A DNA stretch of 64,000 nucleotides from an uncultured Synergistaceae bacterium (GTDB taxonomy: Bacteria > Synergistota > Synergistia > Synergistales > Synergistaceae): assembly GCA_964450835.1 (NCBI GenBank), contig CAYVEQ010000001.1, positions 3,722 through 67,721 of the forward strand, in the 5' to 3' direction. Below the pieces are notes generated by a model. That model had not been told where the DNA came from. It saw nothing but the letters and a program-made list of their open reading frames with translations, and ran no database searches. Numbering within the stretch: the first letter of the stretch is position 1; every line of letters begins with the position of its first letter. Below are positions 5,471 through 21,968 of the stretch, piece after piece. Position numbers and translations under genes: made by a program.

Positions 5471-5817
5471 AAACAGAGCACCCGCTAAGCCGGGTTTTGT
5501 AGGGGGCATGCCCCGCCAGCCATTTATCTGATCCCGCGCTTGCACGCGAGCATAAGCGGTCGCACCCGGGAGTCGGCGGGCCGCCTCATCCTCCCCTATT
5601 CGACCTTGCTCCTGATGGGGTTTGCCTGGCCCGCGGGTTCCCCTCGCGGCCGGTGGGCTCTTACCCCGCCTTTTCATCCTTGCCGCTCGCGCGGCGGTTT
5701 GCTTTTCTGCGGCACTTTCCCTGGGTTCGCACCCGCAGGAATTTCTCCTGCATCACGCCCTGCGGAGCCCGGACTTTCCTCCGGCGGCAGACCGGCGGCT
5801 GGCTCGGATACTCTGCC
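5471..5817 (-). ncRNA. rnpB: RNase P RNA (type A)
   Basis: Minus strand contains GAGGAAAGTCCGGGCTCC, GGGAAAGTGCCGCAGAAA, GGTAAGAGCCCAC, CAAACCCC...GAGCAAG and ACAAAACCCGGCTTA. The ends GGCAGAGTATCC / GGGTGCTCTGTT pair as P1. Confidence 0.96.
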
Positions 5818-6067: not shown

Positions 6068-6104
6068 AAAAAAAACGGCGCCGCCGGATTTCGCGACGGC
6101 GTTT
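6068..6104 (-). terminator. Intrinsic terminator (second of three stacked upstream of rnpB)
   Basis: GCCGTCG-loop-CGGCGGC stem followed by GCCG and T8 on the minus strand. Confidence 0.6.
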
Positions 6105-6222
6105 ATTTCCGTTTGGCGGCGCTGCACGAACTCACTTTCAAGAGCTTTACCGGAACGGGCATTGATACGTTACGTTCTCTCCGGCACAGAAACTGCCGCG
6201 CTTCCCGGGTTCGCGTTTACAG

Positions 6223-6266
6223 AATAAAAAATCGCAGAGAAAGCAGAAACTTTATGCTTTCTCCGC
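6223..6266 (-). terminator. Intrinsic terminator of the accessory operon
   Basis: GCGGAGAAAGCA / TGCTTTCTCTGC 12-bp stem (one G-U) followed by GATTTTTTATT, starting 34 nt after the transporter stop. Confidence 0.75.
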
Positions 6267-6299
6267 AATTACAAATATAAAAGTGTCTTCGTTTCGGAT

Positions 6300-7550
6300 T
6301 TATATCACAATGTTGTAGATGCCGAGGATCGCCATAATCGTCAGCACCGCAAGCGCGATGAATGAAACGGCAAAGAGCTCCACAAAGAGGCGGTTCTGCG
6401 GAAAACGGGTTTCTGCGTCTTTCTGCTGGGCAACGCCTGCCATTATGAGAGCACCTGTGGTAGAGATCGGCGTGAAGCCCACGATCGTTCCGCCGATGAC
6501 AACCATAGCCACCAGCCGGGATCCGTCAACTCCGATGCTTGCGGCAAGACCTCCGGCGACGGGAATCAGCGTCGGGAAGACCACGCCGAGGCCGGAGCTG
6601 AATAAGGACATAACGCCGGAGGCGATGGCCATGATGGGAGCGGCGCTGCCCGGGCCAATGACCTTCTCAAGGGCAGCTACCATAATATCTATGCCGCCGG
6701 AGAGCGAGATGACGTTCATAAGCATCCCAACGCCGAGCACCATGAAAATGACGCCCCAGGGGATGCCCGCGACGGCCTTCTTCTCATTGCCGCAGCCCAG
6801 GGCAACCAGTACAGTGCCGATGAGGAAACCTGTGAGCCCCACATTGAAAGAGAAGAAGAGTACGCCGATTGCCAGAATGACCAGGCCGGCGAGAGAGAGT
6901 AGCTGCTGCCAGGTGAACGGGGGCAGTTTTTCCTTTTCGGCCGAGGCTTCCGCAAGGCGCCAGCCCCTATAGTACAGATAGACCAGCGCGAGTACGATGA
7001 GAGCGGTAATAATCAAGCAGAACATAATGGGGATGGTATCGCCCACCATACCGTGCTCCTCCATCAGATTGCGGACGACGGCCGCCTCCGGAGTCAGCGG
7101 GCTCATGCGTCCGGACATGACGCCGAGGTCTCCGATAATGGCTGTCATAATAGGGTTGATGCCGGCGGAGACAGCCACGGGGATGGCAATAACGGGAATG
7201 ATGGTCAGCGAGGGGATGGCGCCGGGACCGGAGGCCGAGATTGCCATGCCGATGATGTACATCACGAATGGAATGGCTCTTGCCGGGACGAGGTTGACAA
7301 TCTTCTTTGCCATGAGTTCCAGAGTGCCGTTACCGTTGATAATGGCAAAGAGATATGTGACGCCCGCCATCTGAATGAACAGCGAAGTGCCGAAGCCCGC
7401 CACCACTTTCTTGGCTGGAATCACATCCCCGTAGAGCAGCGACAGAATCATCGCGAAGCCTATGCAGAGAATGCCGACGTTGGTGTTGCGGGCAAAGCCG
7501 ATAATGATGGCCGCCAGCAGAAGGATAAGAGAAAGCAGACCCAGGTTCAT
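6300..7550 (-). CDS. Ion-transporter superfamily di/tricarboxylate carrier (MatC/SLC13-like)
   Basis: 416 aa, about 11-12 hydrophobic segments, two-repeat architecture with GRMSPLT and GFTPISTTG re-entrant motifs. Confidence 0.75.
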   Translation of the reverse strand: MNLGLLSLILLLAAIIIGFARNTNVGILCIGFAMILSLLYGDVIPAKKVVAGFGTSLFIQMAGVTYLFAIINGNGTLELMAKKIVNLVPARAIPFVMYIIGMAISASGPGAIPSLTIIPVIAIPVAVSAGINPIMTAIIGDLGVMSGRMSPLTPEAAVVRNLMEEHGMVGDTIPIMFCLIITALIVLALVYLYYRGWRLAEASAEKEKLPPFTWQQLLSLAGLVILAIGVLFFSFNVGLTGFLIGTVLVALGCGNEKKAVAGIPWGVIFMVLGVGMLMNVISLSGGIDIMVAALEKVIGPGSAAPIMAIASGVMSLFSSGLGVVFPTLIPVAGGLAASIGVDGSRLVAMVVIGGTIVGFTPISTTGALIMAGVAQQKDAETRFPQNRLFVELFAVSFIALAVLTIMAILGIYNIVI

Positions 7551-7553
7551 GGT

Positions 7554-8600
7554 TCAGACCTCCTGAAATACGATGCACACGGGGCTACCGGTGCGGACGA
7601 TGTTAAGAGTCGGCGTGAGCTGCCCGGTGACAGAATCAAAGTCAAACTCGATGATTGTGTCGCTGTCCTCGTTCGCCACATAGCACTTGCCGTTCGGAGC
7701 AAAGCAGAAGAAGCGCGGCGTCTTGCCCAGGCATGGGAAGAAACCTGTATTGCGGAGATAGCCGGTAACAGGATCGATACGGTAGGCAGCCAAGCTGTCT
7801 GTGTAGCGGTTGGATACAAGGACATAGCGTCCTGCTGGGTCAACCATGACCTCGCTGGCGTCGGAGTAGCCCGTGACTGTTTCGGGAACAGTGGTCAGCT
7901 CCTGAAGCGCCTCAAACTTGCCTGTCTTGTCGTCAAAGCGGAAGTAGAGGACTTTGTTGCCCTTCTCCTCGCACATATAAAGCCAGCGGTTGTTGGGGTG
8001 CATGGCGGCGTGACGCGGCTCGTCCCATGTCCTTGACAGGAAGCGGTCCGTTTCCGTGAACCGGCCGGTCTCGTGATCGTACTTGAGAGCTCTCATCTGG
8101 CCATAGCCGTTGACGCGGCCCTGAGCGCAGGCGAAGAGATAATTCTTTGTCCGATCCCACAAACACTGGTGGATTGTCGAAACCTTGCCCTCCGATTTCC
8201 CTTCATAGGTGTATGTGGCTACAACCTCTCCCAGGGAGCCGTCTTCGTTACGCGCGATGGTGTAGAGCGTGCCGCCCTGGAGGGTAGCCACGACGATGTT
8301 GCGGTTGGCCTTATCCACAGTGACATCGACGGGGTTGCGGCCGCCTATGTCGACGGTATTCAAATGTTCAAGGGTACGGTCGGGAAGAATCTTGTAGCTG
8401 GACACTTTAGTAAAGTCGCCGTGAACCGAATAGAGATACCTGCCTTCGCGATCCAGAGTCTGATAGGACGGGTTGGCCTCTGTGTAGAGGCACTGCAGCT
8501 CCTTCCACTCTCCGGAGGGCAGGATACGGTAGGTTTTCAGACCCTCGCCCCGGGCATTGCGCTCCTTGGTAGTCCTGCATCCGACATATGCGTACAACAT
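7554..8600 (-). CDS. 7-bladed beta-propeller lactonase (6-phosphogluconolactonase / cycloisomerase family)
   Basis: AYVGCRT, NPSY, GGRNP, EPRHAAMHP and TPRFF motifs; no signal peptide; SD AGGAGG. Confidence 0.85.
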   Translation of the reverse strand: MLYAYVGCRTTKERNARGEGLKTYRILPSGEWKELQCLYTEANPSYQTLDREGRYLYSVHGDFTKVSSYKILPDRTLEHLNTVDIGGRNPVDVTVDKANRNIVVATLQGGTLYTIARNEDGSLGEVVATYTYEGKSEGKVSTIHQCLWDRTKNYLFACAQGRVNGYGQMRALKYDHETGRFTETDRFLSRTWDEPRHAAMHPNNRWLYMCEEKGNKVLYFRFDDKTGKFEALQELTTVPETVTGYSDASEVMVDPAGRYVLVSNRYTDSLAAYRIDPVTGYLRNTGFFPCLGKTPRFFCFAPNGKCYVANEDSDTIIEFDFDSVTGQLTPTLNIVRTGSPVCIVFQEV

Positions 8601-8640
8601 AGTTTTACCTCCTGTTCTCTTCCCGGAATTCCGGGGATTT

Positions 8641-9552
8641 TTATTTTTTTGATTTTTGCGCGGAACCGTTGCCGCCTTTTCCGCCGTTTTTCTCCATTTC
8701 CTGTTCGATATAGAGAATAAATTCCTTCAACGCTTTAGATTTGTGTCCCCCCTGAAGATAGGTGAACCAGGTGTTTCGGAAGATCGGGCTCCCGTCCTTA
8801 TGAAGCATCGGCATACGGAAGAGATTCACGGAGGCGGCTGCGTCCCGCGGCAGAAAACAGCAGACATAGCCCACTCCTTCGGACGCCATCTGCCAAGCCA
8901 CATCAACATAGCCGATGACCATGTTGGCCGGCGGCTCCATATCAAACTGCTCCCTGTACCAGTTGTCCATCAAATCCCGGGATTTGGCGTTGGTGCGGTA
9001 GGCCAGACGCTGCATCCCGGGCAGGTCGGCCAGTTCCGCAGGTTCACGCGTCAGAACATAGGCGGGGGTTTTCTCTACGAAGACTTTCTTCACCGGTCCC
9101 TCGTAATCTCCTCTGACAAAGGCCACGTCCACGGTGCCGTCCAACAGATAGCGAAAGAGGGTATCGCTCGGCTCGTTGAGCACGTTGAAATCAACGTCGG
9201 GGTGAAGATCCCTGTATTTCATCAGAAGGCCAGAGAGGCTGTACTTGCTGAATGTGTATGATGAACCGATCGTTATGACGCTGTCGCGGCAGGAGCGCAT
9301 CTGTTCAACGGTTCTCTTGGTCTCCTCAAGAAATTTCAGGTATATCTCCGCCTGCTGCCCAAGGTAGCGGCCCTCGGCCGTGAAAATCAGCCCGCGCGAC
9401 AGACGGTTGACAATTGAGACGCCAAACTCCTCCTCCATGTGCTGGAGCCGTTTGGTGAGCGAGGGCTGGGTCATATAGAGCAAATTGGCCACTCTCGTCA
9501 GGTTAGGAGTCTTGTAGAGTTCATACAGGATTTTCCAATCTGAATCTTTCAC
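8641..9552 (-). CDS. LysR-family transcriptional regulator
   Basis: N-terminal HTH (NLTRVANLLYMTQPSLTKRLQHMEEEFG...R..RG..FT.EG); 303 aa; GTG start with SD GGAGGAG. Confidence 0.95.
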   Translation of the reverse strand: MKDSDWKILYELYKTPNLTRVANLLYMTQPSLTKRLQHMEEEFGVSIVNRLSRGLIFTAEGRYLGQQAEIYLKFLEETKRTVEQMRSCRDSVITIGSSYTFSKYSLSGLLMKYRDLHPDVDFNVLNEPSDTLFRYLLDGTVDVAFVRGDYEGPVKKVFVEKTPAYVLTREPAELADLPGMQRLAYRTNAKSRDLMDNWYREQFDMEPPANMVIGYVDVAWQMASEGVGYVCCFLPRDAAASVNLFRMPMLHKDGSPIFRNTWFTYLQGGHKSKALKEFILYIEQEMEKNGGKGGNGSAQKSKK

Positions 9553-9584
9553 GCCGGCTCCTCCTTTCCGTCAGGCGTCTTATA

Positions 9585-11552
9585 TCAGCCCTGCCGCTTC
9601 TCCATCTCGGCCAGTTGATTCTTTAGGAAGCGGAGCTGGCCGCCCTGAAGTATGACCTCCACCTCGTTGTCGGTCAGGTCAAGCCGTACATCAAACTCAA
9701 AATGTTTGGTGACGTTGCGCACCGTAACACGCCGCGTCGGGATCTGATCGAGCAGATTGTCTATTTCCAGCTCGTCCATCTGGTCGATGCTGTCATAGGC
9801 GGCCGGGTCTTCAAAGAGCATGGGGATGACGCCGTGATTGACCAAATTGCCCTTGTGTATGCGGGCGATGCTCTTCGCGATGACGCACTTAATGCCCAGG
9901 TACATGGGGTTGATGGCGGCATGTTCACGGGAGGAACCCTGGCCGTAGTTCTCGCCCCCGACGATGATGCTGCTCCCCATCTCCTTGGCCCGCGCGGCAA
10001 AGGCGGGGTCGTAGCGGGTATAGCAGTACTGGCTCATCAGAGGAATATTGGACCGCATGGAGGAAAATTCCGCGCTGGCCGGCGTGATGTCGTCGGTGGA
10101 AACATTGTCGCGGGTCTTCAGGCTGACTCCGGCCTTCATGTACTGCTGAGGAACGTCGGGTATCGGCAGAAACTTGATGTTGGGGCCGCGGACGATTTCC
10201 ACCTTGGCAGATTCCTCAGGAGGCAGCGGCGGAATCAGCAGCGAATCGTCGCAAATGTAGGCAGCGGGTTCGGTAACCTGCCCGAGTTTGGCAACGTCGT
10301 ACCCCATGACGTCGCGGGCGGAGGCGAAGGTTCCCGCCACGGCTGTGGCGGCCGCGCTTTCCGGGGAGACAAGATAGATTTCGGCTGTGGGGTTGCCCGC
10401 GCGGCCTTTGAAATTACGGTTGGATGTGCGCACGGCCACACCGTTGGTCGGGGGCGTCTGACCGATGGCGCAGCAGGGGCCGCATGAAATTTCCAGCAGC
10501 CGGACGCCTGCGTCCGTCAGCATGTCGATGTAACCGTCGCGGAGCAGCTCCTTGTATGTCTGACGCGAAGCGATACCGCAGGTGCAGCTCACGTCCTCGT
10601 GGACGTGCCTGCCTTGGAATACAAGAGCCGCTTTGGCTATGTCGGCGTAGCTGGCGTTTGTGCATGAGCCGATGAATACCTGCTGAACCGGCTTCTTCTC
10701 CACCTGGCTCAGGAGCTTCACATTGTCCGGCAGATGCGGACATGCGACGAGCGGCTCAAGCGATCCGAGATCCAATGTCATCTCTTCGTCGTACTCCGCG
10801 TCCTCGTCGGGCAGAAGCTCCGTGTAGTCCTGAGAACGGCCCTGGGCGGTCAGGAATTTCTTTACCTCTTCGTCGGCCGGGAAGATCGAGGTCGTCGCTC
10901 CCATTTCGGCGCCCATATTTGCGATGGTGGCGCGCTGCGGAATCTCCAGGCTTGCGGCGCCCGGCCCCACATACTCGTAAACTTTGCCCAGACCGCCCTT
11001 GACCGACTCACGGCGAAGCATTTCCAAGATGACTTCCTTCGCGTTGACGCCGGGTTTAAGACGGCCGGTGAGATAGACCTTGACCACCTTGGGCATTTTC
11101 AGGCGCATCGGCACGCCCGTCATCGCTGTGGCTACGTCCATACCTCCCACACCGATGGAAAGCATTCCGACCGCTCCGCTGTGAGGGGTATGGCTGTCGC
11201 CTCCCATCAGCACCTGTCCGGGAACGGCGAAACGGGAAGTCTGAACGGTATGGCAGATGCCGTTGCCTGGCCGCGAGAGCCAGACTCCGTGTCTCTTCGC
11301 CACAGACTGGAGGTAAATGTGGTCATCAGGGGTCATGCTGTTGACATAGAGCAGATTGTGATCCAGATAGCTGACGCTGCATTTGACCCTGGTCCGGTCG
11401 ATGCCGATTGCCTCGAAGGCAAGATAGGTCATAACGGCGTTCACGTCGTGCGTCAATGTCTGATCAACCCTGATGAACACTTCCTCTCCGGGAACCATAC
11501 TGCCGGAGACGAAATGCGACTCGATTATTTTTCTTGTCAGAGATTTTTTCAT
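9585..11552 (-). CDS. Aconitase-family [4Fe-4S] hydratase (single-chain, 655 aa); substrate uncertain
   Basis: DHN, GNGICH, DSHT, IGSCTN, CGPC, RNFKGR and GQGSSREHA motifs; swivel domain fused at the C-terminus. Confidence 0.9.
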   Translation of the reverse strand: MKKSLTRKIIESHFVSGSMVPGEEVFIRVDQTLTHDVNAVMTYLAFEAIGIDRTRVKCSVSYLDHNLLYVNSMTPDDHIYLQSVAKRHGVWLSRPGNGICHTVQTSRFAVPGQVLMGGDSHTPHSGAVGMLSIGVGGMDVATAMTGVPMRLKMPKVVKVYLTGRLKPGVNAKEVILEMLRRESVKGGLGKVYEYVGPGAASLEIPQRATIANMGAEMGATTSIFPADEEVKKFLTAQGRSQDYTELLPDEDAEYDEEMTLDLGSLEPLVACPHLPDNVKLLSQVEKKPVQQVFIGSCTNASYADIAKAALVFQGRHVHEDVSCTCGIASRQTYKELLRDGYIDMLTDAGVRLLEISCGPCCAIGQTPPTNGVAVRTSNRNFKGRAGNPTAEIYLVSPESAAATAVAGTFASARDVMGYDVAKLGQVTEPAAYICDDSLLIPPLPPEESAKVEIVRGPNIKFLPIPDVPQQYMKAGVSLKTRDNVSTDDITPASAEFSSMRSNIPLMSQYCYTRYDPAFAARAKEMGSSIIVGGENYGQGSSREHAAINPMYLGIKCVIAKSIARIHKGNLVNHGVIPMLFEDPAAYDSIDQMDELEIDNLLDQIPTRRVTVRNVTKHFEFDVRLDLTDNEVEVILQGGQLRFLKNQLAEMEKRQG

Positions 11553-11570
11553 TCTTCTACACCCTCCTGT

Positions 11571-12245
11571 TCAGATAATTTCGCAGTCAATCTCACGGAG
11601 CTTCTCTGCCACCCAGGGGCGGGTGAATGTGCCTGAGGCGATTTTCTCCAGTGATTTTTTCTCTTTGTCCCCAACGACCAAGGCGGCCTCGGCAACCTGA
11701 GACGCAATTTCCGGCGAGATAAATATTATGCCGTCCGCGTCTCCCACAACAATGTCACCGGGGCGAACCACCCTGCCTCCGATAACCACGGGAACGTTGA
11801 TCTCTCCCGGGCCGTTCTTATAGGGGCCGTTGGGCGTAAAGCCGCGGGCATAAACGTGGAAATCCTCCACAGCCTCAATGCCCTCTTTGTCGCGGACCGC
11901 ACCGTCGCAGACAATGCCCTTAATGCCGCGCGCCTTGGAGTAGATGACAAGCAGGTCTCCGAACATAGCCCGCTCGGTCCGCCCTCCGGCATCCACCACA
12001 ATGACGTCTCCCGGCTTTGCTATATCCAGCGCCGCGTGGAACATGAGGTTATCCCCTTCTGGCACCTTCACAGTGAAAGCGCAGCCCAGCAACTGGCCCT
12101 TGTTGAGAGGCCGGATTGCCGCGTCCGCCGCCGCCGTGCGTCCCATGCAGTCGTCCAGGTCGGATACCGGAATGCCCCTGAAGCGCTCCACCAGCGCCGT
12201 ATCTGGTCTGTGAAAGTCGCGGATGATTTTGCATCCGATTGCCAT
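11571..12245 (-). CDS. RraA/HMG-CHA aldolase family protein (class II pyruvate aldolase-like)
   Basis: AFTVK...GDNL...A...PGDVIVVD, GDLL, DGAVRD, PGDIVVGDADG motifs. Start at ATG 12245 behind GGAAGGAGG. Confidence 0.88.
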   Translation of the reverse strand: MAIGCKIIRDFHRPDTALVERFRGIPVSDLDDCMGRTAAADAAIRPLNKGQLLGCAFTVKVPEGDNLMFHAALDIAKPGDVIVVDAGGRTERAMFGDLLVIYSKARGIKGIVCDGAVRDKEGIEAVEDFHVYARGFTPNGPYKNGPGEINVPVVIGGRVVRPGDIVVGDADGIIFISPEIASQVAEAALVVGDKEKKSLEKIASGTFTRPWVAEKLREIDCEII

Positions 12246-12311
12246 ATCTCTGCCTCCTTCCAATTTTTACAGCGGGGAAATGCCATATCAACTTTTTTAT
12301 CTTTCTTTTTT

Positions 12312-12340
12312 ATCTTAGATTAGAGGCGGGTGAATGTAAA
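12312..12340 (-). promoter_or_regulatory. Promoter of the accessory operon
   Basis: TTTACA-N17-TAAGAT on the minus strand. Confidence 0.65.
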
Positions 12341-12359
12341 ATTGTATTATTCTATTGCC

Positions 12360-12378
12360 ATATTCCCAAAGAGAATAT
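12360..12378. promoter_or_regulatory. Putative LysR recognition site
   Basis: Perfect inverted repeat ATATTC-N7-GAATAT containing T-N11-A, centred about 64 nt upstream of the predicted start site. Confidence 0.6.
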
Positions 12379-12509
12379 CGAAAATGTACGGCGCGCTGTC
12401 ATGCCGCATACGTCACTGTTTTTTCTTCCGCACGCCGCGCTTTTGCCGCGCGGGATATGAATGTCAGCACTGCCGCTGTTCAGACTGCGAAACGATCCGG
12501 CGAACGGAC

Positions 12510-12539
12510 AAAAAAAGCGGCGCGCCCTGCGGCGCGCCG
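12510..12539 (-). terminator. Intrinsic terminator of the V-ATPase operon
   Basis: CGGCGCGCC / GGCGCGCCG 9-bp stem followed by T7 on the minus strand. Confidence 0.85.
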
Positions 12540-12560
12540 TACAAGAAAACTGCATAGCTT

Positions 12561-13187
12561 CTAGTGGTTTCTCACGATTTCCTTGATGACCATAAGTCTG
12601 CTCAGAGTACTCCGTTCCATCTCTTCGAGCTTCATAGAGATAGAGCGTATCGCCTCTGTGAACGACGGGATCATTACGTGCTCGAGCGCGTTGACGCGGC
12701 GGCGCGTGCGCTCTATTTCAAGCGCCATGGCGCGGATAGCCTTCTCCTCAGCCGCGAGGCGGACGAGCTTCGGCATGACTTCCAGGAATTTCTCAAGCGC
12801 GACATCAAGGCTTCCGGGCGAGGCGGCGAGGCCGTAGTTGAGCTCCGAACGCTGCTCGGGGAATTCAAATTCCGGAACGCGGACGCTCATTACGTTCCTG
12901 TGCTCGACGCTTACCCGAAGGTCGCCGCCCGCCGTCATCAGAGTCTGTTCAAGAACCTGCGGGAGAGTCTGCGCGCGAGCGAGGAGAAAGCCGCCGTAAC
13001 ATTCGCCAAGCTCTCGCTCTACACTCTGCCGCAGTCCGTAGGTGGCTCTGGCTCTGACAAGAAATTCCTTGACGAGCGCGTCCTGCTTGTCTTTGAGCAG
13101 TTTGTGGCCCCGTTTCGCGACTACAAGCTGACGTTTCAGCCGCGATAACTCCATTCTGTTGGGGTTGACGTTAAGCGCCTTTGCCAT
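12561..13187 (-). CDS. ntpD: V-type ATP synthase subunit D
   Basis: NPNRMEL...RGHKLLKDK; EIERTRRRVNALEH. Confidence 0.95.
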   Translation of the reverse strand: MAKALNVNPNRMELSRLKRQLVVAKRGHKLLKDKQDALVKEFLVRARATYGLRQSVERELGECYGGFLLARAQTLPQVLEQTLMTAGGDLRVSVEHRNVMSVRVPEFEFPEQRSELNYGLAASPGSLDVALEKFLEVMPKLVRLAAEEKAIRAMALEIERTRRRVNALEHVMIPSFTEAIRSISMKLEEMERSTLSRLMVIKEIVRNH

Positions 13188-13203
13188 TGAAGGTCACCCC
13201 TCC

Positions 13204-14619
13204 CTACTGTTCCTGCTGCGCGAGTTCCTCTTGTGCCTCTAAGAGCGGCTTAAGGTACTTCTCTATATACTCGTCTCTGATACGTTTGAGTTCTCTGACA
13301 GGCACTATTGTGAGCAGGTCCCAGCCGAGCTGAAGCGTGTCTTCTATGCTGCGGTTGTCGTACTCGCCCTGACGCACGTATTTGTCCTCAAACTCGTCGG
13401 AAAATTTGGCAAACGCCTTGTCTTCTTCGGAGAGCGCGCCTTCGCCGAGGATAACGGCAAGCTCTTTCGCCTCTTTGCCGCGCGAGTAGGCGGCGAAGAG
13501 CTGGTTCATAAGGTCGGCGTGGTCTTCGCGTGTCTTGCCCTTGCCTATGCCTTTGTCTTTGAGTCGTGAAAGCGACGGCATGACATCGACCGGCGGATAG
13601 ATTCCCTTGCGGTGCAGCGTGCGCGAAAGAATTATCTGCCCTTCCGTGATGTAGCCCGTAAGGTCGGGAATCGGGTGCGTTTTGTCGTCTTCGGGCATTG
13701 TCAGGATCGGGATTTGCGTGATGGAGCCTATTTTGCCGCGCAAACGTCCTGCGCGCTCGTACATGGTGGCGAGGTCAGTATAGAGATAACCCGGGTAGCC
13801 GCGGCGTCCGGGGACTTCCTTCCTTGCCGCCGAAATTTCGCGGAGAGCTTCGCAGTAGTTTGTAAGGTCCGTCAGAATGACAAGGACGTGCATTCCTTTT
13901 TCGAAGGCGAGATATTCCGCCGCAGTCAAAGCAAGGCGAGGCGTGGATATACGCTCAATCGCCGGGTCGTCCGCGAGGTTGACGTACATGACAGTACGCT
14001 GCAGCGCGCCTGTCTTGCGGAAATCTTCCATGAAGAAGGATGCTTCCTCAAATGTGATGCCCATTGCCGCGAAGACAACGGCGAAGTCGGAGTGGCCGCT
14101 TATGACTGTCGCCTGTCTGGCGATCTGAGCCGCCATTCTGTTGTGCGGCATACCGCTTCCGGAAAATATCGGGAGCTTTTGTCCGCGGACGAGCGGATTC
14201 ATGCCGTCGATAGTCGAGACACCTGTCTGTATGAATTCAGACGGGTAGTCGCGCGAGAAGGGGTTCATCGGGTTGCCGTTGACGTCAAGCGTCGTCTCCG
14301 GAATGATTGCAGGGCCTCCGTCAATGGGGTCGCCCCGTCCGTTGAATATACGGCCGAGCATATCGCGCGATACCGGAAGCCGCAGAACGTCTCCGAGGAA
14401 TCTAATCTGCGTTGTGTTCACGTCTATTCCGCTGCTTCCCTCATAGACCTGCACAAGGGCGCGATCTCCGCTGATTTCGAGCACGCGGCCGCGGCGGCGC
14501 TCTCCGTTTGAAAGCGTTATTTCGGCAAGTTCGTCATAGCTGACGTCGCTCACCTTATTGACCATCATCAGAGGGCCGGAAAGGTTGGAGATAGTCTTAT
14601 ATTCCTCAGGCAACATCAT
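13204..14619 (-). CDS. ntpB: V-type ATP synthase subunit B
   Basis: [49 protein letters not shown]. Start at ATG 14619 behind GGGAGGTG. Confidence 0.96.
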
Positions 14620-16405
14620 TGCGTTCACCTCCCATTGCAAGCAGTTTGCCGAGTTCGGCTTTTATTTTTGTCTCAAGCTCGTCAAGCTTGGCCAGTTCGT
14701 TTTCTTCGGTGTAGCGCATACGTGAGATTTCTTCGCGTATCGGCAGATCGAAAACCGAACTCATTGTGCCGCCGCGCTTCAGCACCTGCATGCCGAGCGC
14801 GTGGAAGGTCAGTATGTTGCGAAGCATCTTGAACTGCTTGTCCATCGACGCGTAGGTATCAATCTCGTGGAATGAATTCTGGTGCAGGAAGTCCTCGCGT
14901 ATTGACTTCGATGTTTCAAGCACCATGCGTTCTTCTTTCGAGAGCGCGTCAATGCCGACGAGGCGGACGATTTCTTTCAGTTTGTCCTCGTCCTCCAGCA
15001 GCGACATGGCTTCCGTGCGGTACACGCTCCATTCGCCGTCATAGAAGTTGTCCCAGTATTCGCCGAGCTTCTGCGCGTAAAGGGAATAACTGTTGAGCCA
15101 GTTGATTGCCGGGAAGTGGCGCTGATAGGCAAGCTGCGAGTCAAGCCCCCAGAATACCTTTGTGACGCGAAGCGTGTTCTGCGTCACGGGCTCCGAGAGG
15201 TCCCCGCCGGGAGGCGATACCGCGCCGATTACGGAAACAGCGCCCTCGCGGCCGTCCTTGCCGAAGCATATCGCGCGTCCCGCTCTTTCGTAGAAAGAGG
15301 CAAGGCGCGTACCGAGGTAAGCCGGATATCCCTCTTCGCCGGGCATTTCTTCAAGGCGTCCGGACATCTCGCGCAGAGCTTCCGCCCAGCGCGACGTGGA
15401 GTCCGCCATAAGAGCTACGGAATACCCCATGTCGCGGAAATATTCAGCTATCGTGATGCCCGTGTATATTGAGGCTTCGCGGGCCGCGACGGGCATATTC
15501 GAGGTGTTGGCTATAAGCAGCGTCCTCTTCATAAGTGGCTGGCCCGAACGCGGGTCCTCAAGTTCCGGGAATTCAAGAAGAACGTCTGTCATCTCATTGC
15601 CACGTTCGCCGCAGCCGATGTAGACAACGATCTCCGCGTCCGCCCACTTGGCGAGCTGGTGCTGTATAACGGTTTTTCCTGAACCGAAGGGGCCGGGAAC
15701 ACAGGCCGTGCCGCCGCGCGCTATTGGGAAGAATGTGTCGACGACGCGCTGTCCGGTTGTAAGAGGCACTTCAGGCGGAAGGCGTTTGACGACCGGGCGC
15801 GGTGAACGCACGGGCCAGCGCTGAAGCAGTTTAATCTCATGATCCTGCCCCTTCGCGTCCGTTACGACAGCGACAGTTTCCTCGACTGTAAATTCGCCTA
15901 TCTTAATTTCTTTGATTTTTCCGGCCACCCCGTGAGGAACCATTATTCTGTGCTCTACAAGAACCGTCTCGTTTACGATTCCGATGATATCGCCCGGGGC
16001 CACTTCGTCTCCTACCTCAGCCTTAGGCTCAAAGGCCCATTTGCGTGTGCGGCTCACTGCGGGAACGCTGATCCCCCTGAGGATATAAGGACTCTGCGCC
16101 TTGTCCTGAATCGCTTCGAGCGGACGCTGTATGCCGTCAAAAAATTCTTCTATCATTCCCGGGGCGAGTTCAACGGAAAGAGGCTCTCCTGTGCTGACGA
16201 CAGGCTCTCCGGGGGCAAGCCCGGACGTTTCCTCATAAACCTGTACTGACGCCTGATCGTCTTTGAGTTCTATTATTTCTCCGACGAGGCCGGCCCTGCC
16301 GACTTTAACGACGTCGAACATGCAGGCTCCGGCCATGCCGCCGGCTATTACAAGCGGGCCGGATATTTTTTCAATATATCCGGTAACGGTGTTAGGTGTG
16401 GTCAA
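14606..16405 (-). CDS. ntpA: V-type ATP synthase subunit A
   Basis: Walker [39 protein letters not shown]; TTG start with SD GGAGG. Confidence 0.96.
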
Positions 16406-16429
16406 ATTAAATCGCCTCCGTCACAATCA

Positions 16430-16771
16430 TCATTTATCACCGAATATGTCCATGCCGACCGCGCGTTCGACGTTGCGGCGTATCGACAGAAGACCGACGT
16501 TCATCGACCCTGTCTGATTGGGCACAGGGATTATACTTATATCGGAATATTCGTTTATCTCGTCGACGGCCTCTCTGAACTCGGAGTACAGCGGCTCTTC
16601 GAGGAAGAGCGCGGCATACCCGGAGCGGGCGAATCTGCTCAGCGTCTGAGGAACTGACGAGCGGTTCTCATCTGTGACAACTACCACATCAAGTCCTATC
16701 GCCTTAAAAGGCAGAATGCTCTCGTAATTTCCGACTGCCGCCATCGGGGCTCTCTGTTTATGCGTTGACAT
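16430..16771 (-). CDS. V-type ATP synthase subunit F
   Basis: AAVGNYESILPFKAIG; IIPVP...G...IRRNVERAVGMDI; position in the operon. Confidence 0.88.
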   Translation of the reverse strand: MSTHKQRAPMAAVGNYESILPFKAIGLDVVVVTDENRSSVPQTLSRFARSGYAALFLEEPLYSEFREAVDEINEYSDISIIPVPNQTGSMNVGLLSIRRNVERAVGMDIFGDK

Positions 16772-17774
16772 TGCGCAGAAGCCTCCTTATCTGACCGCCG
16801 TCTTTGCCTGTCGCCTTGGATACGGCGATCATGCGTATGTTCTTGACCTCAAGCTCTTTGGCCCACAGATACGCCACCAGGTTGCCCGGAGCGCTGGAAC
16901 TGAAGCGGCTGCCGGAGATGGCGTGCAGGTAAAAGTCGTCAAGCGCTTTTTCCAAGTCCATCATAACATCGGCAAAAGGAGCGGCTGCGTCTGTTCCGGC
17001 GAAAAGCCCGGCGATGTCGGCATAGGCTATCATACGTCCCCATGTTTCAAAAGGCTCTGAAATCATCGGCGCAAGTGTGTTGATATCCAAGTTGCCGCCT
17101 TCGTGGAGGAAAGCCGCTGCGCGCGAAGCGTCAAAGCCGAAACGCTTGAGTCTGAGCAGCGAGCGGATGTTTTCTCCGTCTATCCTGAGCCTCACCCAAG
17201 ATGAAATTTCAGGGACAGACAATCCGTCGGCCTCTTCACTCATAACGGCGTACAGCTGCCCGTCAAGCGCCCGTTCGACTTCCAATACGTCATGGTTCTG
17301 CTCCCACGCGGAAAGGCATTTCGGAAAGAGTGCAGCCAGACCGAAAGGCAAAAGCCGATAGTCTTCCGCCTCTATCTCGGAAATCAGCTTGTCAACAGGA
17401 TAAGAGGCAAGCGACGTGAGAAGATCCCATCTTTTTCTGCCGCCGCTTCTTGCGCTGAAGATGCTTTTCAGCATAACCTTGACATTGCTGAAGTCATACG
17501 GCAGACGAAGCAGTGTGACCAGCTCTTTCTGAGGAGCGAAGGAATTCACCTCTTCGTAGGTATCGTGCAGCACTGTTTCCAGAACTTTGTCGAACCCTCC
17601 GCTGCCGGAAACCGACGCGAGCGCTGCCGCGTAAGAGGTTTCTCCGAGAATTTTCATGACGGAGGGCGTGTCTTCGGCGTCGAGCATCCTCGTGAAAACC
17701 GAGGCGTCAAGAAGGCGCAGCTCCATAGCGCGTATACGCGCCACGGCATATCCGTAAGCCTCCTTATATGACAT
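16758..17774 (-). CDS. ntpC: V-type ATP synthase subunit C
   Basis: YGYAVARIRAMELRLL; AYLWAKELEVKNIRMI; position in the operon. Confidence 0.9.
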   Translation of the reverse strand: MSYKEAYGYAVARIRAMELRLLDASVFTRMLDAEDTPSVMKILGETSYAAALASVSGSGGFDKVLETVLHDTYEEVNSFAPQKELVTLLRLPYDFSNVKVMLKSIFSARSGGRKRWDLLTSLASYPVDKLISEIEAEDYRLLPFGLAALFPKCLSAWEQNHDVLEVERALDGQLYAVMSEEADGLSVPEISSWVRLRIDGENIRSLLRLKRFGFDASRAAAFLHEGGNLDINTLAPMISEPFETWGRMIAYADIAGLFAGTDAAAPFADVMMDLEKALDDFYLHAISGSRFSSSAPGNLVAYLWAKELEVKNIRMIAVSKATGKDGGQIRRLLRNVNA

Positions 17775-17790
17775 CAGGGCACCTCCTTCT

Positions 17791-18375
17791 TCACGCGGCC
17801 GGGAACAAACGCTTTACAACGTCAGATTCCTGTTTTTCCTGAGAGACTTTAAGAAGCATCTCCCAAGAGCAATTTACGCTGATTCTTCCTCTGCGGAGAA
17901 TAAAACCTCCCGCTATATCGGCTCTCTCACCGGAGAGAGTAAGAGCGGAACCGTGGGACGAGTTGTAAGCGTCAAGCCACGCGGCGTCAATGTACTTTTC
18001 TTCCGAGCCGATTACGACCTCTTCGTCCTTGGAGGAAACCCCGCCGTCAAGAAGATTCGTGCAGAAAGCGAGATATTCGTCCTTAGGAAGAGCTTTCATC
18101 TTATCGAGAGCGCCGCTGTATACACGCTCAATCAGCTCGCGTTTCGCGCTGAGCATCATTTTGCTTATATCTATGTCCGCGACAATCTCTCTGCGTTTTA
18201 TTATTTCAGGGCGTTCAGCTTCAAAACGGGCGTCGAATCCCTCCTGTATATCGCGGCATTCTTTGTCGGCCTTGGCCGCAAGGGCCTCTGCCTGCGATTT
18301 AGCCTTCGCGAGGATTTCGTCCGCCTCTTTCTGAGCGTCGTTCCTGATTTTTTCAGTAATCTGAGCTAAAGACAT
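17791..18375 (-). CDS. ntpE: V-type ATP synthase subunit E
   Basis: Coiled-coil N-terminus, GGFIL...I.VNCS; position in the operon. Confidence 0.9.
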   Translation of the reverse strand: MSLAQITEKIRNDAQKEADEILAKAKSQAEALAAKADKECRDIQEGFDARFEAERPEIIKRREIVADIDISKMMLSAKRELIERVYSGALDKMKALPKDEYLAFCTNLLDGGVSSKDEEVVIGSEEKYIDAAWLDAYNSSHGSALTLSGERADIAGGFILRRGRISVNCSWEMLLKVSQEKQESDVVKRLFPAA

Positions 18376-18393
18376 GACACTCAGTCTTCTTTG

Positions 18394-18891
18394 CTATAAT
18401 TTGATCCCGTTGAGCAGCAGGATGCTGACCAGCAGACCGAAAACCGCGTAAGTTTCGCACATGGCCGGGAGAATGACCGCCTTACCGATTTCTTCGGGGC
18501 GCTTCGCAATCATAAGGATTGTCGCGGCGGACGACTTGCCCTGCCAAATAGCCGAATAGAAGCCGACTATCGCAATCGGCAGGCAGGCGAAGCAGATGCC
18601 GAGACCCTGCCAGACAGTTACGACCGTATCCCCGCCGAGGAGGCCGGACTTCTGCATAGCGAGAACCGCGACAAGCAGTCCGTAAATGCCCTGTGTGCCG
18701 GGAAGGGCCAGAAGAACGAGCGCGTAGCCGAATTTCTTGGGGTCCTCCGTCATGATTCCCGCAGCGGCTTCGTTAGCGAGGCCGATGCCCCACGCGGAAC
18801 CGGAACCCGCGAAGCCGACCGCGAGAGCCGCGCCAAGAATAACTAGCATCTGTCCAAGCTGATCACCGATTGTTGCGATAATTGTTTCCAT
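18394..18891 (-). CDS. ntpK: V-type ATP synthase subunit K (four-helix c subunit, Na+-type signature)
   Basis: LPGTQGIYG, WQGK and MCETYAV motifs; 165 aa. Confidence 0.95.
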   Translation of the reverse strand: METIIATIGDQLGQMLVILGAALAVGFAGSGSAWGIGLANEAAAGIMTEDPKKFGYALVLLALPGTQGIYGLLVAVLAMQKSGLLGGDTVVTVWQGLGICFACLPIAIVGFYSAIWQGKSSAATILMIAKRPEEIGKAVILPAMCETYAVFGLLVSILLLNGIKL

Positions 18892-18936
18892 AATAAAAAT
18901 TTACCTCCTTTAAAAATTGTGCCGCGTATACGCGTT

Positions 18937-20952
18937 TTAGTTTGCCGAAGATTCTTCCGTGATGCTGGAATACTGCGCCGCGTTGCAGAGCGGTTCAAAA
19001 TTGCGGCCGGTAGCTTCATAGAACTTGCCGAAGAATTCGACATACTGAAGTCTCAGCGGATGTATGAAAGCTCCCAGTATGTTGACCGCTATGCTGAACA
19101 GATGTCCCAGCACAAACAGCAATACAGCCAGCACAATGCCTACATATGGCACCCCTGAGACCAGTCCCGCGAGAAGGTTGATAACCATCCCGACCGCGGC
19201 GGAACCCAAGCCGAGCGCAAGCAGGCGGCTGTAGCTCAGAACATCTCCGAGATAACCTGTGACGTTGTAAAGGCTCATGACGCCGGAGAAGAGTTTCCCG
19301 AACAGGTTCTTCTTTTCCCTGCCTTGCGTCGCGACCAGAATGGCGGCTCCGGCTATCGCTACGATTTTGCCCGGCAGAGCAAGCGAGGGAGCAACGGCTC
19401 CTCCCGTGGAGCACCCGAAGAGCACAAGCCCGCAGAGGAAGAGTATCCAGCCGCCCTGGTCGGCGCAGGCCGCCAGTTTATCTCCCGCCTTCCAGTTCTG
19501 GTAAAAGGCAAGAAGCAGACCGTACATCAGCTGGACAAACCCGAGCGCGAGCGAGATCAAAAGCATTGTTATCGGGTCTCCCATCGGGTTTAAGAGCCGT
19601 ATCTTTGAAGCGACATGTTCGACGCCTGCAAGGAACGGGAACGCGGTAAGCGCGTCGCCGAACCACGACGTCGTTATGGCGCCGAAAGCGACAGCCACCA
19701 ACATACCGACAACCATCATCACGAAAAATTTGCGAAGCGTCGGCTGAAGCTGATAGCGTACCAGAAAATATCCGAGAAGCGCCGCGACAATCAAGCCGTA
19801 GCCCGCGTCGCCAAGACATATGCCCATAAACAGGAAAAAGAACGGGGCCATATGAGTAGTCGGGTCGACCTTGCCGTATGTAGGCGTGCCGTACATGACA
19901 GTGAGCGGCTCAAGGCATGAGGACCACGACGGGTTATGCAGAAAGGTCGGCGGAACCTCTCCGGTCTCTGGCTCCACTTCGGCAAATTCAGTAAACTTTT
20001 CGTATTTGGATACCGCTGTCTTCACTCTGTCAATTTCCGACTTCGGCACCCACAGTTCCCAGATAAGCACTTCTTCGGTCGGCTCGCCGGACTCCATAGC
20101 GTTGAGCCTGCGGCTGACTATGTTCCAGTAGTCGCTGTGGTCGCGCGCGGCCGCAAGCCCTGCGTCGGCGTGCTCCGCGAGTCTGTCTGACAGTTCCCTT
20201 TCCTTTTTCTCGAAAGAGGCAATGCCGGCGCTGAGCTTTGCCTTTTCCTCCGAAGAGGTGAGAATGAAATCTTTGGGAACTTCAACGCGTGTCGCCCCGG
20301 AATTAGCGAGCGCCGCCTGGAGACGTTCAGAATCGCATTTGCGATAGAGCACGGCAAACACAGTCTCCGGGTCCTTGTCCGCCCCTAGTATTTCCTGGAT
20401 ATCAGCCATATCCGCCAGTTCCGCCGTTATTTTCTCGCGCAGATCCGCGGCGGTGTCTTTTGAAACGCTGTAAATCGCACCGCTGACTGTTTCGGTTCCG
20501 GCAGTAAAAAATTCGAGCGGATATTTAATTTTTTCCAGCAAAACGGCCTGACTCATAAGTCCTTTCAGCCGCGAAATCTCGGCCCGCGTCTCCGTGAGGC
20601 TTTTCTCTATTTCTCTGAGTGAAGACGTGAGTTCCGCAAATTTCTGTCCATCGATCTTAGCCGCCAGTTCGCCAAACGACACAGAGGGCGCGCCGCTCAG
20701 CATTCTTTCCAAACCGCCCTCTTTGGTCTCGTATGGCTCCAAAAGGCGTATCACAAACTTCGCATCGCCGATCTGCTCGTCGATGCGGCGTTTTTTCTCG
20801 CGAAGCGGTTCGGCCGCTCCGGTATGCCGGGCGGGTTCGCCGGTTTTGCCTGAGAACTCGCAGCATCCCAGCGACTGAAGGCTGGCCGCTAAATCATCGG
20901 CGACGGATTTATGGACGGCAATCCGCGCCTTGCACATTTCAGCGAGAGCCAT
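18937..20952 (-). CDS. ntpI: V-type ATP synthase subunit I (a)
   Basis: YGTPTYGKVDPT, GDAGYG, GDVLSYSRLLALGL, HPLRLQYVEFFGKFY. Confidence 0.95.
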   Translation of the reverse strand: MALAEMCKARIAVHKSVADDLAASLQSLGCCEFSGKTGEPARHTGAAEPLREKKRRIDEQIGDAKFVIRLLEPYETKEGGLERMLSGAPSVSFGELAAKIDGQKFAELTSSLREIEKSLTETRAEISRLKGLMSQAVLLEKIKYPLEFFTAGTETVSGAIYSVSKDTAADLREKITAELADMADIQEILGADKDPETVFAVLYRKCDSERLQAALANSGATRVEVPKDFILTSSEEKAKLSAGIASFEKKERELSDRLAEHADAGLAAARDHSDYWNIVSRRLNAMESGEPTEEVLIWELWVPKSEIDRVKTAVSKYEKFTEFAEVEPETGEVPPTFLHNPSWSSCLEPLTVMYGTPTYGKVDPTTHMAPFFFLFMGICLGDAGYGLIVAALLGYFLVRYQLQPTLRKFFVMMVVGMLVAVAFGAITTSWFGDALTAFPFLAGVEHVASKIRLLNPMGDPITMLLISLALGFVQLMYGLLLAFYQNWKAGDKLAACADQGGWILFLCGLVLFGCSTGGAVAPSLALPGKIVAIAGAAILVATQGREKKNLFGKLFSGVMSLYNVTGYLGDVLSYSRLLALGLGSAAVGMVINLLAGLVSGVPYVGIVLAVLLFVLGHLFSIAVNILGAFIHPLRLQYVEFFGKFYEATGRNFEPLCNAAQYSSITEESSAN

Positions 20953-21805: not shown

Positions 21806-21881
21806 TGGCAGTCCCTAGGAGATTCGAACTCCTGTTAACGGGCTGAGAACCCGCCGTCCTGGGCCCCTAGACGAAGGGACC
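21806..21881 (-). tRNA. tRNA-Glu (anticodon CTC)
   Basis: Cloverleaf: GGTCCCT/AGGGACT acceptor, GCGGG-TTCTCAG-CCCGT anticodon arm, AGGAG-TTCGAAT-CTCCT T arm, encoded CCA; 76 nt. Confidence 0.95.
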
Positions 21882-21894
21882 GTCTCGCAAAAAA

Positions 21895-21968
21895 TGGCTG
21901 GGGTACAAGGATTTGAACCTCGATTACCTGATCCAGAGTCAGGCGTGCTGCCGTTGCACCATACCCCA
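21895..21968 (-). tRNA. tRNA-Gln (anticodon CTG)
   Basis: TGGGGTA/TACCCCA acceptor with U1-A72, CCTGA-CTCTGGA-TCAGG anticodon arm, encoded CCA; 74 nt. Confidence 0.95.

Follow-up and report, generated by a model that had tools for sequence, protein, structure and literature searches.

The stretch of DNA analyzed here (64 kb in full length, hereafter the window) stems from a chicken-gut Synergistaceae genome (G000; 1.8 Mb in 92 contigs) in the genus of Candidatus Caccocola faecigallinarum, and it carries a block of five genes encoding an RraA-like enzyme, an aconitase paralog, a LysR-family regulator, a lactonase-family β-propeller protein, and a di/tricarboxylate carrier (Table 1). We discuss this block as a candidate system for tricarboxylate fermentation built around an apparently undescribed module of lactonase, carrier, and aconitase. 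An earlier note on this DNA had described five co-oriented genes with gaps of 3-40 nucleotides (nt), one promoter region, a LysR-type box, and a terminator, and had placed them between rnpB and the V-ATPase operon: Both the layout and the placement hold, the latter by the rnpB match on one flank and the V-ATPase D, B, and A genes confirmed on the other. All five open reading frames (ORFs) are co-oriented on the minus strand and are separated by successive gaps of 18, 32, 40, and 3 nt. For the RraA-like gene the ATG at 12245, which stands behind GGAGG, was preferred as start codon over the upstream TTG at 12263.

Table 1. Genes and signals of the five-gene block and its flanks, in window coordinates
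Feature	Coordinates	Strand	Evidence
rnpB (RNase P RNA)	5471-5814	-	flanks island
Closing intrinsic terminator	about 6222-6270	-	16-bp hairpin and U-run, ΔG -22.6 kcal/mol, z -3.7
MatC_N/CitMHS-type di/tricarboxylate carrier, 416 residues	6300-7550	-	MatC_N and CitMHS domains
Lactonase-family enzyme, 7-bladed β-propeller, 348 residues	7554-8600	-	PF10282
LysR-family regulator within operon	8641-9552	-	HTH_1 and LysR_substrate domains
Lactonase-linked aconitase paralog, 655 residues, predicted Fe-S hydro-lyase	9585-11552	-	PF00330 and PF00694, NF005558
RraA-like protein, 224 residues, predicted class II pyruvate aldolase/β-keto-acid decarboxylase	11571-12245	-	PF03737, NF004850
AT-rich promoter region, four overlapping σ70-like hexamer pairs	12263-12402	-	hexamer scan
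Candidate LysR-type box TATTC-N7-GAATA, includes T-N11-A	12361-12377	.	palindrome search
Intrinsic terminator of upstream V-ATPase operon; upstream boundary of island	12518-12539	-	9-bp all-GC stem, then T-run

The promoter region has a GC content of 0.47 as compared with 0.57 for the genome; the scan of the region yielded nine σ70-like sites where 3.2 are expected, four of them within 12263-12402(-). The palindrome TATTC-N7-GAATA is present as a single copy in the window (0.02 expected), and the layout ATTC-N7-GAAT also precedes the homologous operon of the sister species Ca. Caccocola faecigallinarum. The closing terminator at 6222-6270 was missed by a simple terminator scan because its loop comprises 9 nt. 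Between this terminator and rnpB lies a further terminator-like hairpin (6079-6101(-); 8 bp, seven of them GC, with a T-run).

Only 0.6-1.2 kb separate the V-ATPase D gene from rnpB in four congeners, as opposed to 6.7 kb in the window, which identifies the five-gene block as an insertion of roughly 6 kb. The lactonase is present in one congener only, namely Ca. Caccocola faecigallinarum (G002), where the module occupies a different genomic place and where no genes but those for carrier, lactonase, LysR, and aconitase are syntenic with the window. The module is transferred horizontally between hosts at high sequence identity; that the window operon itself was acquired in this way and is controlled by its LysR protein is a possibility that we adopt, with some reserve, as part of our best explanation. 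Base composition gave no hint of a recent transfer: The cluster reveals no anomaly (GC content 0.570 versus 0.573 for the genome), and its GC content at third codon positions resembles that of the neighboring genes. The LysR gene of G002 (L016 9934-10833) gives a tblastn match over 284 residues but a longest ORF of only 217 residues; it may be disrupted or start elsewhere.

Recurrence of the module and its tie to citrate chemistry

The distribution of the module was followed in a census of 83 lactonase-bearing loci, of which 80 were retrieved by scanning a single genome for each GTDB species and the others were obtained separately. Neighborhoods were annotated by ORF clustering and tblastn, and neighbors were counted within 8 kb of the lactonase, both for all loci and for those 44 in which this gene has 6 kb or more of flanking sequence on each side (Table 2); several bins of metagenome-assembled genomes in the census have doubtful taxon labels. 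Carrier and lactonase are the invariant pair, adjoining each other in 65 loci, usually together with the aconitase and LysR, and their surroundings consist of variable tricarboxylate enzymes. Most hosts are Clostridia, and the module also resides in Negativicutes (Veillonella, Acidaminococcus), Actinomycetota, Synergistota (Synergistaceae), and Enterobacteriaceae (Klebsiella spallanzanii) as well as in Olsenella and Bulleidia. These hosts, at least 83 species representatives in number, inhabit the mouth and the guts of humans, chickens, and ruminants. The gene order with lactonase and carrier is retained across phyla. For the lactonase alone, more than 1000 homolog clusters were found at E < 1e-30, the best homologs being 73-86% identical and belonging to Oscillospiraceae, Lachnospiraceae, Stomatobaculum, Butyricicoccus, Coprococcus, and Lawsonibacter. 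The earlier note had asked whether the five genes co-occur in other anaerobes: Their core does recur, in 83 species and with a lactonase identity of 75-86%, but a fixed set of five genes does not exist, as the RraA-like gene accompanies 21 of the 83 loci. Self-contained operons of four genes (lactonase, carrier, aconitase, and RraA) are found in Anaerosphaera, Acidaminobacter, and Faecalispora.

Table 2. Genes found within 8 kb of the lactonase
Neighbor	All loci (of 83)	Loci with both flanks (of 44)
MatC-type carrier	65	36
650-residue aconitase	59	38
LysR	48	28
Iso_dh-family dehydrogenase	39	21
750-residue YbhJ-type hydratase (NF008503)	25	22
Citrate lyase CitD / CitE / CitF	22 / 21 / 16	14 / 14 / 13
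RraA-like	21	13
PrpF	12	7
MmgE/PrpD	11	8
LarA-like racemase	6	5
DUF6282	6	5
TRAP-TAXI transporter	6	6
HpaI/GarL-type aldolase	1	1

The neighbors themselves indicate the type of chemistry. The Iso_dh-family neighbor is closest to the isocitrate dehydrogenases (IDHs) dependent on nicotinamide adenine dinucleotide and keeps the S-x-N (Ser-x-Asn) motif, which binds the γ-carboxylate of isocitrate. Citrate lyase is encoded in cis in about a quarter of the 83 loci (CitDEF in about 21). Moreover, citF is located elsewhere in nine of ten tested module-bearing genomes that have no CitDEF in the cluster, G000 included, and eight of these nine hits exceed the curated cutoff. Among 150 Oscillospirales genomes drawn at random, four had citF and none had the lactonase; as the citF background is higher in Synergistales, the enrichment is best supported in the six Bacillota genomes (6/6). 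In G000, citF lies on contig C2 (648 bits, cutoff 501) with CitE and CitD adjoining. Taken together, CitDEF and Iso_dh as neighbors and citF in module-bearing genomes point to citrate, isocitrate, or hydroxycitrate chemistry. The surroundings of citF on contig C2 (about 10000-19100; L114 1038-10077) comprise a GntR-type regulator, two tandem split aconitase-family pairs that are LeuC/LeuD- or homoaconitase-like, an IDH/homoisocitrate-dehydrogenase-like gene, CitD, CitE, and CitF; in other Synergistales the equivalent role falls to a fused aconitase-IDH-CitDEF operon.

Several loci stand out by their neighborhoods. In Lacrimispora, Ventrimonas, and Lawsonibacter (L051, L057, L059, L091, L102), the genes flanking the lactonase encode a TRAP-TAXI transporter, MmgE/PrpD, two DUF6282 proteins, and a LarA-like nickel-pincer racemase, and this variant also includes aconitase, RraA, and PrpF genes. 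In one Oscillospiraceae genome (L025-L027 1-6955), a divergent operon beside the module encodes a DASS transporter, a flavin adenine dinucleotide-dependent oxidoreductase, a MOFRL glycerate kinase, and a dehydrogenase resembling tartronate-semialdehyde reductase, and the module terminates in an HpaI/GarL-type aldolase, which may there release glyoxylate or tartronate semialdehyde. An assignment of this HpcH_HpaI neighbor as a CitE-like lyase was ruled out, since it matches HpaI/GarL aldolase models and not citE. The plasmid collection contained distant homologs only (at most 39% identity), for example a pair of lactonase and major facilitator superfamily transporter on a Ralstonia megaplasmid.

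The aconitase paralog and the β-propeller lactonase

The window aconitase surpasses the NCBI models for aconitate hydratase, with 838 bits in NF005558 (cutoff 612) and 762 bits in TIGR01342 (cutoff 719). Together with the regulator, whose best NCBIfam model is CcpC, the citrate-responsive regulator of Bacillus, these scores would suit a plain citrate/isocitrate aconitase that serves glutamate synthesis under a CcpC-like protein, with the other three genes as unrelated neighbors. We give this housekeeping role very little credence: The regulator attains 114 bits in the CcpC model whose cutoff is 400, the block is an insertion missing from four of five congeners, the order with lactonase and carrier is common to hosts of different phyla, and genome G043 possesses both the lactonase-linked aconitase and a housekeeping aconitase-IDH pair. 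Among 61 relatives, the aconitase type of the window is confined to the three genomes that carry the lactonase (identities of 75% and 61%). Other Synergistales encode their full-length aconitases within aconitase-IDH-CitDEF operons, with 46-50% identity to the window copy, and four congeners contain no full-length aconitase at all. In the phylogenetic tree, the window copy lies inside a 48-member lactonase-linked clade (Shimodaira-Hasegawa-like approximate likelihood ratio test (SH-aLRT) 92), apart from the housekeeping copies, and is most closely related to a Faecousia protein (Oscillospiraceae; 84% identity). The earlier note had spoken of a variant aconitase, and the gene is indeed a distinct paralog with a clade of its own.

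We compared its active site with pig aconitase (1ACO) in an alignment that also contained 54 cluster-linked copies. Kept are the three cysteine ligands of the 4Fe-4S cluster, the residues corresponding to pig D100, H101, H147, D165, S166, H167, N258, and E262, and those corresponding to N446, R447, R452, R580, S642, S643, and R644. Because the cysteine ligands, the catalytic aspartate, histidine, and serine residues, and four carboxylate-binding arginines are retained, the substrate should be a citrate-like tricarboxylate. The pocket motifs differ: Cluster-linked copies have TLTHD(I/V)NAVMT, TDDITPASAEFSSMRSN, and CGPCCAIGQTP, whereas housekeeping copies have TLTQDATGTMA, TDHIMPAGA, and CGACIGMGFAP, and the equivalent of pig Gln72 is a histidine in the cluster-linked enzymes. 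As proof of a new substrate the Gln72-to-His exchange was rejected, since one housekeeping copy also has histidine and true aconitases differ from one another at further positions of the pocket. Overall, these residues are evidence for a citrate-like substrate and an altered specificity of the paralog; they do not prove a new reaction.

The window lactonase matches PF10282 over its full length (221 bits), and its AlphaFold model (predicted local distance difference test score 88) is a 7-bladed propeller. This model superimposes on 3SCY, 4QRJ, 6IGB, 1RI6, and 1JOF with template modeling (TM) scores of 0.83-0.87; closest are putative 6-phosphogluconolactonases of Bacteroides, the gluconolactonase PpgL of P. 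aeruginosa, and E. coli YbhE, and the likeness is slightly weaker for the fungal carboxymuconate lactonizing enzyme (CMLE; TM 0.83). The equivalog for 6-phosphogluconolactonase, NF008258, is missed (77 bits, cutoff 370). Since the fold search matches hydrolase and cycloisomerase types alike (TM about 0.83-0.87), a cycloisomerase would also be compatible with the fold; a lactone hydrolase is the simplest reading of the model.

A non-hydrolytic propeller, e.g., a cycloisomerase or isomerase, would fit an aconitate-centered pathway, in which trans-aconitate or another stereoisomer of aconitate or isocitrate is fermented via citrate, oxaloacetate, and pyruvate. Such a fermentation of trans-aconitate has reportedly been described physiologically for Acidaminococcus fermentans, and Acidaminococcus does contain the cluster together with PrpF and the YbhJ-type hydratase (L107). 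The genome paper of A. fermentans assigns pairs of MatC-carrier and aconitase genes to trans-aconitate/citrate fermentation (PMC3035267), and grasses and cereals are rich in trans-aconitate (PMC4945632). The PrpF-family isomerases in 12 loci and the propeller fold shared with CMLE also agree with this pathway, which we nevertheless consider improbable: G000 contains no PrpF homolog, PrpF and the propeller protein co-occur, so that neither replaces the other, and in sequence the propeller protein is far nearer to hydrolytic sugar-acid lactonases than to CMLE, with which phmmer gave no match.

The RraA-like enzyme

The RraA-like protein covers positions 3-151 of the 152 positions of PF03737 (157 bits) and passes NF004850, a subfamily named 'hypothetical protein' (257.8 bits, cutoff 231). 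Its best solved relative is the 4-hydroxy-4-methyl-2-oxoglutarate/4-carboxy-4-hydroxy-2-oxoadipate (HMG/CHA) aldolase/oxaloacetate decarboxylase of P. putida (3NOJ; 119 bits, E 2e-33). The motifs FGDLL and DGAVRD align with Asp102, the catalytic Arg123, and Asp124 of 3NOJ, Asp102 and Asp124 forming the metal site, in an alignment that resolves these three residues but not the equivalent of Glu199'; the retention of GD(LL) and GAVRD as metal/Arg-type motifs, which had been noticed from the sequence beforehand, is borne out by this alignment.

An anaerobic counterpart of the lower protocatechuate/gallate pathway had been proposed beforehand, in which the lactonase would act on 2-pyrone-4,6-dicarboxylate (PDC), the aconitase would convert oxalomesaconate to CHA, and the RraA-like enzyme would cleave CHA to pyruvate and oxaloacetate. 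CHA is formally a 4-oxo-homocitrate, which makes an aconitase-family hydratase chemically conceivable, and related clusters encode an HpaI-type aldolase and members of the PrpF family, which includes the tautomerase GalD of the gallate pathway. The module also resembles the protocatechuate 4,5-cleavage/gallate pathway in its general logic of lactone opening, (de)hydration, and an RraA-fold enzyme acting on a 2-oxo acid. However, it relies on a β-propeller and an Fe-S aconitase where that pathway (LigI, LigJ/GalB, GalD, LigK/GalC) employs amidohydrolases, and the LigK-type equivalogs are missed by the window protein (TIGR02798 ligK_PcmE, 141.9 bits versus a cutoff of 304.5; NF006731, 161.4 versus 179). 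Neither LigI/LigJ (or GalB/GalD) nor a ring-cleavage dioxygenase was found in the window cluster or in the 83 loci, save the PrpF-family genes in 12 of them, and three quarters of the loci have no RraA-like gene. The dominant neighbors are citrate lyase and isocitrate-type dehydrogenase, accompanied by YbhJ-type hydratase, PrpF, PrpD, and LarA-like proteins; furthermore, the hosts are strict anaerobes, and no source of PDC or oxalomesaconate is evident in anoxic guts. A route from PDC via oxalomesaconate to CHA is for these reasons disfavored and appears highly improbable to us. Isocitrate or hydroxycitrate lactone, named by the earlier note as alternative substrates, are a better fit to the citrate/isocitrate-type neighbors and the tie to citrate lyase.

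The origin of the RraA-like gene differs between hosts. In the tree, the window copy groups with Synergistaceae paralogs (SH-aLRT 99) and not with the Clostridial RraA clade, whose members accompany the module elsewhere and in the sister species, and in one relative an HpaI/GarL-type aldolase takes the place of the RraA-like protein. As judged from this tree, RraA-like genes were recruited to the module at least twice independently, the window copy from a Synergistaceae paralog. That two RraA paralogs and an HpaI-type aldolase have joined it independently argues for a need of such an activity downstream, and it makes the module a clear case of convergent pathway assembly. The pyruvate aldolase that had been postulated as a component is therefore only partly retained: An RraA-like or HpaI/GarL-type partner recurs, but it is variable, and the sister species has a different paralog. 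The Synergistaceae paralogs, among them those on contig C74 of G000 (L020 537-4697) and at L018 in G005, are 59-62% identical to the window copy. In their operon, which is conserved in Synergistaceae, the RraA-like gene is accompanied by genes for a Na+/dicarboxylate symporter, an aspartate-type aminotransferase, and a 2-hydroxyacid dehydrogenase that most resembles glyoxylate/hydroxypyruvate reductases. By its gene content, this operon looks like a pathway for the cleavage or decarboxylation of amino-acid-derived 2-oxo acids, with aspartate or 4-hydroxyglutamate as candidate precursors.

Candidate substrates and related systems

From the gene content, we conclude that the module probably allows gut and mouth anaerobes to ferment the lactone form of a citrate-like plant acid. 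More specifically, and on the basis of gene context, we tentatively read the window operon as serving the use of a lactonized hydroxy-tricarboxylic acid, the likeliest being isocitrate lactone or a close stereo- or hydroxy-analogue. In the proposed sequence, the MatC/CitMHS carrier would import the lactone, which is a dicarboxylate, and the β-propeller lactonase would open the ring to the tricarboxylate. The Fe-S aconitase paralog would then dehydrate and rehydrate this product to citrate, which the citrate lyase CitDEF, encoded on another contig, would split into acetate and oxaloacetate. Finally, the RraA-like enzyme encoded at the head of the operon would decarboxylate oxaloacetate to pyruvate. 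The substrate, the direction of the aconitase reaction, and the role of the RraA-like protein as decarboxylase rather than aldolase are in this scheme what we infer. The organic-acid/lactone catabolic system that the earlier note had seen in these five genes thus emerges as a conserved and apparently uncharacterized module; a match to a characterized operon was looked for in the full-text literature on its enzymes, the candidate lactones, ybhDHIJ, and trans-aconitate, and no published characterization of the cluster was found there.

Several observations weigh against isocitrate lactone as the substrate and against the sequence of steps. A plain isocitrate-to-citrate step would not obviously need an aconitase as diverged as this one (Gln72 to His; altered TDD.TPAS and CGPCCAIGQ). 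Moreover, some loci (L106) hold only carrier, lactonase, and citrate lyase without an aconitase, and others (Enterocloster) hold carrier, lactonase, and LysR only, so that the product of the lactonase may not need an aconitase everywhere. G043 has the module but no citF, and the operon context of the RraA paralogs would fit a 4-hydroxy-2-oxoglutarate aldolase as well as an oxaloacetate decarboxylase.

A rival candidate is the lactone of hydroxycitrate (hibiscus or garcinia acid). Here, the lactonase would open the ring, the aconitase would act as a tartrate-dehydratase-like dehydratase that yields the enol of oxalosuccinate, and the RraA-like enzyme would decarboxylate oxalosuccinate, which is a 3-substituted oxaloacetate, to 2-oxoglutarate; in other genomes, the decarboxylation would fall to Iso_dh or the HpaI-type enzyme, and an amino-acid fermenter would consume the 2-oxoglutarate. 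The variable partners of the module, RraA-like, HpaI/GarL-like, and Iso_dh, all perform metal-assisted β-keto-acid decarboxylation or pyruvate-aldol chemistry, as is established enzymology. A diverged aconitase pocket is to be expected if the γ arm bears an extra hydroxy group, LarA-like epimerases in the neighborhood would be in keeping with a substrate that has several stereoisomers, and the self-contained operons of lactonase, carrier, aconitase, and RraA occur in Anaerosphaera, Acidaminobacter, and Faecalispora, which are amino-acid fermenters. Additionally, the bacterial conversion of hydroxycitrate to 2-oxoglutarate has been reported as the activity of an orphan enzyme with no known gene, and isocitrate dehydrogenase is reported to be active on the hydroxycitrate of Garcinia (PMC4945632). 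Yet hydroxycitrate is abundant in few plants only, and the cluster is common in bacteria of chicken, ruminant, and human guts and of the mouth; the strong genome-level tie to citrate lyase would be left unexplained, and no aconitase is directly known to dehydrate hydroxycitrate. We therefore regard this route as rather unlikely, and with it the corollary that the module and its RraA-like, Iso_dh, or HpaI-type partner might be the genetic basis of bacterial hydroxycitrate catabolism. If true, common anaerobes of gut and mouth would break down a plant acid that is also a widely used dietary supplement, with an Fe-S aconitase put to a new use as a tartrate-dehydratase-like enzyme, and genes would be at hand for an activity that was reported biochemically decades ago and never tied to genes.

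Returning to the tentatively favored lactone of isocitrate or a close analogue, the corresponding pathway resembles bacterial citrate fermentation clusters such as those of Klebsiella and Lactococcus, which consist of a citrate carrier, the citrate lyase CitCDEFXG, and an oxaloacetate decarboxylase: Shared features are a carboxylate carrier, citrate lyase (in cis in about 21 of 83 loci, elsewhere in nine of ten genomes), and the proposed decarboxylation of oxaloacetate to pyruvate. In contrast to those clusters, the invariant pair consists of a MatC-type carrier and a β-propeller lactonase, usually joined by the dedicated aconitase paralog, the candidate decarboxylase is a soluble RraA-like protein instead of a biotin-dependent Na+ pump or a malic-enzyme-type CitM, and the predicted regulation is by LysR and not by CitAB or CitI. 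With the AcnD/PrpF and PrpD steps of the 2-methylcitrate cycle, the module would share an aconitase-family dehydratase that is associated with PrpF- or PrpD-family proteins and acts on a substituted citrate; unlike that cycle, it contains neither a methylcitrate synthase nor a methylcitrate lyase and is led by lactonase and carrier. A further parallel is the Pseudomonas 2-hydroxyparaconate lactonase PA0880 of the itaconate cluster, which opens the lactone of a citrate-like tertiary hydroxy acid before further catabolism, with an aconitase-like dehydration speculated to be next; PA0880 differs in being a glyoxalase-fold protein of 127 residues whose substrate is a C5 dicarboxylate derivative and whose pathway depends on coenzyme A (PMC9875883).

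In Klebsiella spallanzanii (L099), a LysR gene is followed divergently by genes for the lactonase, MatC, the aconitase, PrpF, the YbhJ-type hydratase, and Iso_dh. This order mirrors that of the E. coli region pgl(ybhE)-ybhD-ybhH-ybhI-ybhJ, in which a propeller lactonase-family gene adjoins genes for a LysR protein, a PrpF-family isomerase, a carboxylate transporter, and an aconitase-family hydratase of the YbhJ type; if the likeness holds, the unassigned ybh genes may be a remnant of the same system. The differences are considerable: The E. coli locus presumably has a DASS-type transporter and neither a 650-residue aconitase nor an RraA-like gene, and YbhE, which is an established 6-phosphogluconolactonase, is only distantly similar to the window lactonase (45 bits). 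The genes ybhDHIJ have been described as uncharacterized (PMC9068703). Identification of the substrate would provide a function for a large uncharacterized branch of propeller lactonases and for a distinct aconitase clade, would likely shed light on the long-unassigned ybhDHIJ, and would explain how gut anaerobes make use of tricarboxylic acids from plants in their lactonized form, derivatives of isocitrate, hydroxycitrate, and aconitate being examples.

Apart from the five-gene block, the window contains two neighboring tRNA genes at 21809-21968(-), as identified by Rfam RF00005.

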